Shown here piece by piece: positions 27,001 through 30,000 of a DNA stretch of 64,000 bases. The stretch lies in the NCBI RefSeq assembly GCF_013167455.1, contig NZ_CP038328.1. One strand, given 5' to 3'. Origin of the DNA: Escherichia coli O157:H7 (GTDB lineage: Bacteria; Pseudomonadota; Gammaproteobacteria; Enterobacterales; Enterobacteriaceae). Each line of letters opens with the position of its first letter. The stretch's first letter is position 1. A program made the position numbers.

Positions 27001-30000
27001 AGGGGCCGAAAGGTGACAGGGGAGAGCGGGGAGAGACCGGTCTGACGGGAAATGCAGGTCCACAGGGTCCAAAGGGAGATACCGGTACGGCAGGCCCGGC
27101 AGGCCCGGCAGGCCCACAGGGACCGAAAGGAGAAACAGGTGTGGCTGGCCCGGTAGGGGCAACCGGACCTCAGGGGCCGAAGGGCGACCCGGGAGAGACG
27201 CAAATACGGTTCCGTCTGGGGTCGGGAAACATTATTGAGACAAACAGCAATGGCTGGTTCCCGGATACAGATGGCGCACTCATCACCGGACTGACCTTTC
27301 TTGACCCCAAAGATGCCACACGGGTTCAGGGGTTTTTTCAGCATTTGCAGGTCAGATTTGGCGACGGGCCGTGGCAGGATGTCAAGGGGATGGATGAAGT
27401 GGGCAGTGATACAGGCAGAACAGGAGAATGACATGAACATACTAAAAAAACTTATGCAGCGTCTGTGTGGTTGCGGAAAGCATGATGACCGTGAACACGG
27501 GGAGTTACTTACAGCACAACTGCGACTGGGGCCGGCAGACATCCTGGAGTCAGATGAGAATGGCATTATTCCGGAGCAGGACAGGGTAATCACACAGGTG
27601 GTGATACTGGATGCGGATAAAAAGCAGATACAGTGCGTGGTAAGACCGCTGCAAATCCTACGTGCTGACGGGAGGTGGGAAAATATTGGCGGGATGAAAT
27701 AGCCGACGGGTTCACAAAAACCGGAGTCCTGCTCTGGTTTTTGTTGTCACGTATGGGGGATGTTTGTTACAGCTATTTAAGTCTGGAGTTCAAATTAAAA
27801 TAGGGAGCTTTGTTATGCCATTAACCTCAGATATTAGATCACATTCATTTAATCTTGGGGTGGAGGTTGTTCGTGCCCGAATTGTAGCCAATGGGCGCGG
27901 AGATATTACAGTCGGTGGTGAAACTGTCAGTATTGTGTATGATTCTACTAATGGGCGCTTTTCATCCAGTGGCGGTAATGGCGGATTGCTTTCTGAGTTA
28001 TTGCTTTTGGGATTTAATAGTGGTCCTCGAGCCCTTGGTGAGAGAATGCTAAGTATGCTTTCGGACTCAGGTGAAGCACAATCGCAAGAGAGTATTCAGA
28101 ACAAAATATCTCAATGTAAGTTTTCTGTTTGTCCAGAGAGACTTCAGTGCCCGCTTGAGGCTATTCAATGTCCAATTACACTGGAGCAGCCTGAAAAAGG
28201 TATTTTTGTGAAGAATTCAGATGGTTCAGATGTATGTACTTTATTTGATGCCGCTGCATTTTCTCGTTTGGTTGGTGAAGGCTTACCCCACCCACTGACC
28301 CGGGAACCAATAACGGCATCAATAATTGTAAAACATGAAGAATGCATTTATGACGATACCAGAGGAAACTTCGTTATAAAGGGTAATTGAAATGAACATT
28401 ACCCTTTATTTTATTTAATGAAACATCCTGCAAACTGATATGAATTACTGAATGAGGTTTTTATGCCTGTTACCACCTTAAGTATCCCAAGTATATCTCA
28501 ATTATCTCCTGCAGGAGTACAGTCTTTGCAGGATGCTGCCAGACTTGAAAGTGGAATAAGAATATCCATTGGTAGTGGCCAATATTCTGTTCACTATGTC
28601 CAGCTACTGGATGGATTTTCAGTTGAACCGGTGAGAGGAGGCTTACTGGATAGGCTATTGGGGCGTGAGCATCGAATGGAGAGAAGGGCTGTGGCTCTGG
28701 AAAGGCAATTAAATGGAGGTGTCGATTTTTTAAGTAGTGTTAATAACTATTTTCAGAGTGTCATGGCAGAACACAGAGAAAATAAAACAAGTAATAAAAT
28801 ATTAATGGAAAAAATAAATTCTTGTTTATTTAGACCTGATTCTAATCACTTTTCTTGCCCGGAGTCATTTTTGACATGCCCGATAACGCTGGACACACCT
28901 GAGACTGGGGTGTTCATGAGAAACTCACGAGGTGCTGAGATATGCTCTCTATATGATAAGGACGCGTTAGTGCAACTTGTTGAAACTGGTGGAGCTCATC
29001 CTCTGAGTCGAGAACCTATAACAGAATCAATGATTATGAGAAAAGATGAATGTCACTTTGATACAAAAAGAGAAGCTTTTTGTTGTAAGTGATAATTAAT
29101 GATATAAATGTAGTTTTATGTACTTTTATTTTTTACTAAAGCAAAATTAAGTTATTAAAATGGAGGGAGAGGAATGCCTGTAGATTTAACGCCTTATATT
29201 TTACCTGGGGTTAGTTTTTTGTCTGACATTCCTCAAGAAACCTTGTCTGAGATACGTAATCAGACTATTCGTGGAGAAGCTCAAATAAGACTGGGTGAGT
29301 TGATGGTGTCAATACGACCTATGCAGGTAAATGGATATTTTATGGGAAGTCTTAACCAGGATGGTTTATCGAATGATAATATCCAGATTGGCCTTCAATA
29401 TATAGAACATATTGAACGTACACTTAATCATGGTAGTTTGACAAGCCGTGAAGTTACAGTACTGCGTGAAATTGAGATGCTCGAAAATATGGATTTGCTT
29501 TCTAACTACCAGTTAGAGGAGTTGTTAGATAAAATTGAAGTATGTGCATTTAATGTGGAGCATGCACAATTGCAAGTGCCAGAGAGCTTACGAACATGCC
29601 CTGTTACATTATGTGAACCAGAAGATGGGGTATTTATGAGGAATTCAATGAATTCAAATGTTTGTATGTTGTATGATAAAATGGCATTAATACATCTTGT
29701 TAAAACAAGGGCGGCTCATCCTTTGAGCAGGGAATCAATCGCAGTTTCAATGATTGTAGGAAGAGATAATTGTGCTTTTGACCCTGACAGAGGTAACTTC
29801 GTTTTAAAAAATTAAGGTAGCAATGGCGGGTTAACTTTTCGTAAAATGAAATTAATTCTCGGTACGGCATGTAAAACGCGGCACCTCGTATGCAAGAACG
29901 TGCCGCGGTTGGCTGGTAAGCTTTTCGATAGTGCGAGTATCTAATGATTTCCAGCCGGAACTGATTCTATTGGAAAGAAATCATGGGCGCCAGATTGATT

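Follow-up and report, generated by a model that had tools for sequence, protein, structure and literature searches.

What is encoded by the small open reading frame (ORF) of 89 codons that follows, after a single base, the side-tail-fibre gene stf of a lambdoid prophage in Escherichia coli O157:H7? We addressed this question in a window of 64,000 nucleotides (nt) from contig NZ_CP038328.1 (assembly GCF_013167455.1), which contains the right end of the prophage, a region 100% identical to several complete genomes. By its sequence, the ORF encodes a stand-alone copy of the knob domain, PfC, that ends the Stf fibre. Purifying selection acts on it in its own frame, it sits at a fixed place after the fibre gene, and peptides of a homologue are listed in the examined part of a phage proteome. 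The gene is annotated, belongs to a known family and has been flagged in the literature; new here are the in-frame selection, the near-neutrality of the linker, the co-occurrence with the fibre in all 75 usable loci, the genome counts and the peptide listing. The features on which the argument turns are these:

26109–27431, plus strand: stf, encoding a collagen-like side tail fibre of 440 amino acids (aa).
27204–27395, plus strand: the PfC domain of Stf, residues 366–429, paralogue of the domain in the ORF.
27422–27426, plus strand: Shine–Dalgarno (SD) sequence AGGAG for the ORF, within the final stf codons, six bases 5' of the ATG.
27429–27431: the stf stop codon TGA, followed by a single C at 27432 and the ORF's ATG at 27433.
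27433–27702, plus strand: the ORF, 89 codons and a TAG stop at 27700–27702 (WP_001023406.1).
27433–27468, plus strand: N-terminal amphipathic helix MNILKKLMQRLC, codons 1–12.
27444–27450, plus strand: A7 homopolymer, codons 4–6.
27469–27513, plus strand: variable linker, codons 13–27, containing most of the motif CGCGKHDDREH.
27514–27699, plus strand: the PfC domain of the ORF, codons 28–89.

A sequence-only reading of the window had placed the start at 27433, 1 nt after the stf stop and behind a good ribosome-binding site, with a product of 89 aa, and all of this proved exact. Its view that the ORF is coupled to the fibre gene likewise agrees with what we see, a genuine gene whose SD lies inside the last stf codons. 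The 19-nt junction between the two genes, AGAACAGGAGAATGACATG, is unchanged in 81 of the 82 loci readable there.

The same reading had left the ORF unassigned, which does not hold. Residues 28–89 are a complete PF06820 domain (Phage_fiber_C, "PfC"), matched over positions 1–64 of the 64 in the model with 125.4 bits against a cut-off of 25 (expectation value, E, 1.1e-36). In PHROGs, the family phrog_576 ("tail fiber protein", 89 positions) aligns to the ORF from end to end (1–89 of 89), and the RefSeq/PGAP name for the product is "phage tail fiber C-terminal domain-containing protein". Stf itself carries PF08400 (E 3e-68), PF01391 and, at residues 366–429, PF06820 (E 6e-34), which is the order PfN, coiled coil, collagen, PfC of the EPclA type (cf. 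PMC3368898). By BLASTP, the ORF and the PfC of Stf share 35% identity over 62 aa (E 1e-10). What such a domain can do by itself is known for the fibre: the PfC (7 kDa) of the EPclA fibre forms a trimer when isolated and is able to re-nucleate the collagen helix (Ghosh et al. 2012, PMC3368898).

An AlphaFold2 (AF2) model of the ORF product has three parts: a helix at residues 3–12 (predicted local distance difference test, pLDDT, about 62), a stretch at residues 13–23 that is predicted to be disordered (pLDDT below 50), and a six-strand beta domain at about residues 30–85 (pLDDT 82–93). The helix pattern recurs in P0128, a homologue of 63% identity. In this model the ORF's PfC is beta-rich and has no alpha-helix, as Ghosh et al. 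(2012) describe for the PfC fold from circular dichroism, but whereas the fibre domain stands at the end of a fibre polypeptide, that of the ORF is preceded by a helix and a linker with no fibre shaft. Searches of the PDB by sequence, whether by the single sequence or by a profile, gave chance-level matches only. With the AF2 model as query, Foldseek returned 5yvq_A from the PDB, the complex of the Mu fibre with its chaperone, as top match (probability 1.0, E 0.045), and in BFVD the eleven best matches had probabilities of 0.96–1.0 and TM scores of about 0.5; four of these eleven are named as tail-fibre proteins, two carry other names (YomR and an uncharacterised protein) and five are unnamed. 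The structure search that the sequence-only reading had proposed thus points, with modest scores and from a predicted model, to the tips of phage tail fibres. A motif pattern that by eye suggested sequence homology to Mu S did not reach significance (hhalign E 0.24; shuffle z 1.8). Given this result and the modest scores, we claim resemblance of fold to fibre tips and not homology.

Selection on the ORF was measured in loci chosen independently of its product. An initial estimate came from 80 loci ordered by the identity of their proteins, which biased it; we therefore repeated the estimate of pN/pS (nonsynonymous over synonymous polymorphism, each per site) on IMG/VR loci fetched by the 19-nt stf/ORF junction alone. 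An intact 89-codon ORF was present in 103 of the 110 copies with enough sequence to judge (94%). Over the whole ORF, pN/pS was 0.19, versus 1.9 and 1.2 in two off-frame controls. The value differed by segment, at 0.10 for codons 1–12, 0.86 for codons 13–27 and 0.09 for codons 28–89 (pS about 0.13), and the PfC of Stf gave 0.38 compared to 0.09 for that of the ORF. The ORF is therefore under purifying selection in its own frame, with the helix and PfC constrained and the linker nearly neutral. Four of the 110 copies were frameshifted in the A7 run, leaving a 51-aa product; these could be plain decay or could mark a slippage-prone on/off site. The motif CGCGKHDDREH, proposed earlier as a metal-binding element, is indeed present near the N-terminus (residues 12–22), but it falls in the least constrained segment (0.86), where pLDDT is below 50: of 83 copies, 13 have Y or R for C14 and 37 have N or D for H22, and C14H is a further variant. 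A metal site in this near-neutral, predicted-disordered linker is not supported.

The ORF is abundant and closely tied to the fibre. Its DNA is present in 296 phage records; of 5426 complete E. coli genomes, 697 have it, at a median of 10 copies each and at most 15. To define linkage, we picked 80 loci by the stf PfC alone, 75 of which had enough DNA downstream; the ORF directly followed the fibre's PfC end in 75/75, with the one-base gap in 73. The ORF and the PfC end of the fibre thus form one fixed cassette, found in long-tailed lambdoid prophages and in short-tailed Shiga toxin (Stx) phages alike. The sequence-only reading had taken a lack of conservation across related prophages as what would speak against it and had suggested an analysis of co-occurrence with the fibre gene; the ORF is kept across related prophages, and the linkage is complete in the usable loci. 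Outside Escherichia, the picture is sparse. A phmmer search of 1.84 billion representative proteins gave 57 matches, nearly all of them fragments or fusions of the same enterobacterial prophage protein, so that almost no distant relatives were gained and the family is very narrow outside Escherichia. Diverged stand-alone copies are found in Citrobacter rodentium (P0073, 72% identity by BLASTP, in a degraded prophage) and in another enterobacterial assembly (P0128, 63% identical). At one diverged locus (L085, ORF 63% identical), PfC terminates a fibre that lacks collagen. The last codons of that fibre gene overlap the small ORF, which carries an AGGAGG of its own, and a hairpin with a U-run lies 3' of the ORF. 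Pairwise PfC identities are 62–84% among ORF-type copies, 69–83% among collagen-borne fibre copies and 27–37% between ORF type and fibre type; the PfC of the non-collagen L085 fibre is 27–37% identical to every other copy. Because ORF-type and collagen-borne PfC each form a group, the duplication is old and both copies have been kept.

Two single matches were noted in these searches. Of 15 places on plasmids where the ORF occurs, one, with 94% identity, is in a 91.6-kb plasmid of E. coli strain D1 (NZ_CP010135.1; H69), which may be a phage-plasmid. P0145, a protein of 2323 aa with proline-rich repeats that looks eukaryote-like by inspection, matches ORF residues 22–53 in six stretches (E 1.4e-5), a match that is probably compositional or due to chance.

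Protein evidence comes from the Stx phage phi24B. The supplement to its virion proteome (preprint 10.64898/2026.04.10.717836), of which we examined a part, lists two peptides unique to the homologue there called "gp59", ADGTWENIGGMK and VITQVVILDADKK, and these entries show that the ORF homologue is translated at least in phi24B. The search database held hypothetical gp61–gp59 entries named "Fusion_6159_FS1/FS2", with the label "Spike or just gp59?". In the part examined, there was no junction peptide (TGEDM..., MNILK...) and no N-terminal peptide, and EA1829 was the one sample with the fusion entry above gp61; other small proteins were counted there too, a pattern that weakly suits a free product of about 10 kDa. 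For mass spectrometry, candidate marker peptides of the ORF protein would be LGPADILESDENGIIPEQ[D/A]R, VITQVVILDADK and ADGTWENIGGMK, and a fusion would be marked by TGEDMNILK.

Genetic evidence comes from Sp5, the Stx2 phage of O157:H7 Sakai, in which the homologue ORF68 is classed as a non-essential late gene and the fibre gene ORF67 as essential (Mondal et al. 2016, PMC5155283). These assays used K-12 MG1655 only. The same authors found no frameshift signal and proposed ORF68 as an "intragenomic reservoir sequence".

Our best explanation, held with a little better than even confidence, is that the ORF is a genuine gene of the side-tail-fibre module, translated separately, whose product would form its own PfC trimer and act as a dispensable fibre-tip accessory. 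Its translation would be coupled to that of stf through the SD in the last stf codons and the one-base gap; the product would assemble into a small PfC trimer; and this trimer may bind, or work beside, the fibre knob, in assembly or in host recognition on natural hosts. Such a role would be accessory and not that of an obligatory chaperone of the Tfa type. Several points weigh against this explanation. On K-12, the Sp5 homologue is classed as non-essential both for plaque formation and for lysogeny (PMC5155283). In the part of the phi24B supplement examined, the gp59 peptides had 3 spectra each, as read from the sheet, versus 47 for one C-terminal peptide of gp61; such low counts are sub-stoichiometric and compatible with carry-over from the lysate, and the main text of the preprint does not discuss the homologue (10.64898/2026.04.10.717836). 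The PfC whose trimerisation was measured is that of a fibre (PMC3368898), the ORF's domain being only 35% identical to fibre PfC, and a three-copy "trimer" AF2 model joined by linkers was uninformative (mean pLDDT 44, predicted TM score 0.38).

A bolder form of this explanation, which we regard as doubtful but worth stating, is a two-component fibre tip in which the small PfC trimer docks on or beside the terminal knob and sets receptor recognition on hosts that bear O-antigen. If this were so, a tip of two paralogous knobs would be common to Stx phages and to many lambdoid prophages of enterohaemorrhagic E. coli (EHEC), and its having been overlooked until now would be due to the use of rough K-12 in every test. 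Stx phages carry collagen-like fibres of this kind, as do some ten prophages in each EHEC genome, and the phi24B preprint names what the lateral fibres do as an open question (10.64898/2026.04.10.717836). A co-inherited, strongly constrained paralogue of the knob is thus a cheap and specific candidate for the question of the natural receptor and of the spread of stx.

The proposal of Mondal et al. (2016), that the ORF is mainly a stored alternative tip to be grafted onto stf by recombination, is possible, though we regard it as doubtful. Natural recombinants of the expected kind exist in E. coli: in P0061, the collagen repeat of stf is fused in frame to ORF residue 33 (GERGPA joined to DILESD) at a short microhomology, CCGGCAG, and in P0125, ORF residues 1–40 are joined to a fibre-type PfC tail. 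These are rare, however, with 4 member sequences for P0061 and 1 for P0125 compared to thousands of intact 89-aa members. The two PfC copies have no detectable nucleotide similarity, and the longest words that the ORF shares with stf, 10 nt, lie elsewhere in stf. A pure store of DNA, moreover, would not retain an SD, an ATG or a constrained helix (pN/pS 0.10). The proposal is compatible with an accessory fibre-tip protein, and the two are not exclusive.

Does the ORF encode instead a Tfa-like chaperone, on which folding or trimerisation of the collagen-like fibre would depend, as other fibres depend on lambda Tfa or Mu gp50? Its position raised this question, and the sequence-only reading is in part supported here. 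The ORF does sit where an accessory or Tfa gene would, directly 3' of the fibre gene in a coupling-type layout and in strict co-occurrence with it, and the fibre tip of Mu that its predicted fold resembles is bound in 5yvq to its chaperone. The chaperone role itself fares poorly, and we consider it unlikely. At E ≤ 1, no chaperone or Caudo_TAP family matched: Pfam gave PF06820 only, NCBIfam gave none, and PHROGs gave two tail-fibre families and one weak match of unknown function. The protein resembles a fibre and not a chaperone. As the earlier reading had noted, the ORF is also much shorter than Tfa, at 89 aa versus about 175–195 aa (Mu gp50, 175 aa). The Sp5 homologue is classed as non-essential while its fibre gene is essential (PMC5155283), and in a laboratory strain, without the ORF, recombinant EPclA forms trimers and so does its isolated PfC (PMC3368898).

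Recoding at the stf stop is very unlikely. A +1 shift (GAA UGA C AUG) would yield a Stf-Asp-ORF fusion with two PfC knobs, and the ORF is indeed in frame +1 with respect to stf, a frame that has no stop in the 46 codons before the ATG; the sequence UGA-C after an SD-like AGGAG also recalls the prfB shift site. The database of the phi24B authors included the two fusion entries described above. By inspection, however, a tRNA-Glu on GAA could not re-pair with AAU, and no X XXY YYZ slippery heptamer lies in the last 180 nt of stf. Mondal et al. likewise found no frameshift signal (PMC5155283), and in the part of the phi24B supplement examined no junction peptide was listed and the EA1829 pattern is, if weakly, that of a free protein of about 10 kDa. 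Read-through of the UGA can be set aside, as it would continue in the stf frame and add only 18 residues (by inspection).

That the ORF is a decaying, functionless remnant of an old duplication or tip replacement is equally improbable. In its favour, laboratory growth does not need the Sp5 homologue, truncated or fused copies are numerous in draft genomes and the C. rodentium copy lies in a degraded prophage. The selection data nevertheless go most of the way to refuting it: pN/pS is 0.09–0.10 in two separate segments at a pS of about 0.13, and the off-frame controls exceed 1. In addition, 94% of the copies chosen by the junction are intact, the gene pair is retained in a lineage with a 63%-identical ORF, and peptides of the phi24B homologue are listed in the part of its supplement examined. 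Three further candidates were rejected. A diversity-generating retroelement or invertible cassette does not fit, as the ORF and stf share no DNA repeat and there is no reverse transcriptase, recombinase or invertase among the neighbours J, lom, stf, the three nleG genes and uspF. A lipoprotein (lipobox L-C-G-C) does not fit a segment, residues 1–11 (MNILKKLMQRL), that carries K, K, Q and R with no hydrophobic core, nor a variable C14. A defence gene found no match in PADLOC.

The remaining features of the locus are as follows:

21853–25377: J, of a long-tailed lambdoid prophage.
25445–26044: lom, between J and stf.
27714–27744, plus strand: hairpin with a U-run (RNA fold, free energy −24 kcal/mol, z −3.3).
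27764–29815: three nleG genes, followed by chromosomal uspF, ompN and nifJ.

The hairpin at 27714–27744 was not called by a simple terminator scan; it is probably the terminator of the late operon before the low-GC nleG cassettes. Strong terminator-like hairpins also flank lom, at 25396–25415 and 26071–26092. Since stf and the ORF begin right after a terminator, their expression presumably relies on late antitermination. Directly after the fibre module stand three tandem genes for type III effectors of the NleG family (208, 209 and 213 aa), in a region of 38% G+C compared to 51% for the window. The first of them, the sole one scanned against Pfam, is PF06416 (E 2e-46), and RefSeq labels all three "DUF1076 domain-containing protein"; nleG genes also lie 3' of the ORF in C. 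rodentium and in L085. Beside the prophage end, ompN (30971–31738 and flanks, minus strand) is annotated as frameshifted in an identical RefSeq genome. On the minus strand, ORFs at 26332–27162 (276 aa) and 26799–27593 (264 aa) span the collagen repeat and the first 161 nt of the ORF. The antisense frame that overlaps the ORF is open in 103/103 alleles examined, most likely as a by-product of GXY repeat composition and close similarity among the alleles.

How, then, does the ORF compare with known systems? With lambda Tfa, Mu gp50/U and P2 G it shares its position after the fibre gene and an accessory status, but it has half the size of Tfa-type proteins, matches no chaperone family, resembles a fibre tip and appears dispensable. 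Its model bears a modest-scoring resemblance of fold to the distal tip of the Mu tail fibre S/S' (8ju3, 5yvq) and to other fibre tips in BFVD. The fibre PfC of EPclA and EPclB (Ghosh et al. 2012) is the same full-length, beta-rich Pfam domain, and there it is a self-sufficient trimerisation knob; the PfC of the ORF, in contrast, stands behind a 27-residue helix and linker with no collagen stalk, is 32–37% identical to fibre-borne PfC and is much more conserved than it (pN/pS 0.09 versus 0.38). Closest of all are Sp5 ORF68, phi24B "gp59" and Lys12581Vzw H3H22_gp01, which are the same 89-aa protein (93–98% identical) after the same one-base gap; those copies follow a 645-aa fibre of the EPclB type in short-tailed Stx phages, whereas the ORF described here, in a long-tailed lambdoid prophage and beside J and lom, follows a 440-aa fibre of the EPclA type.

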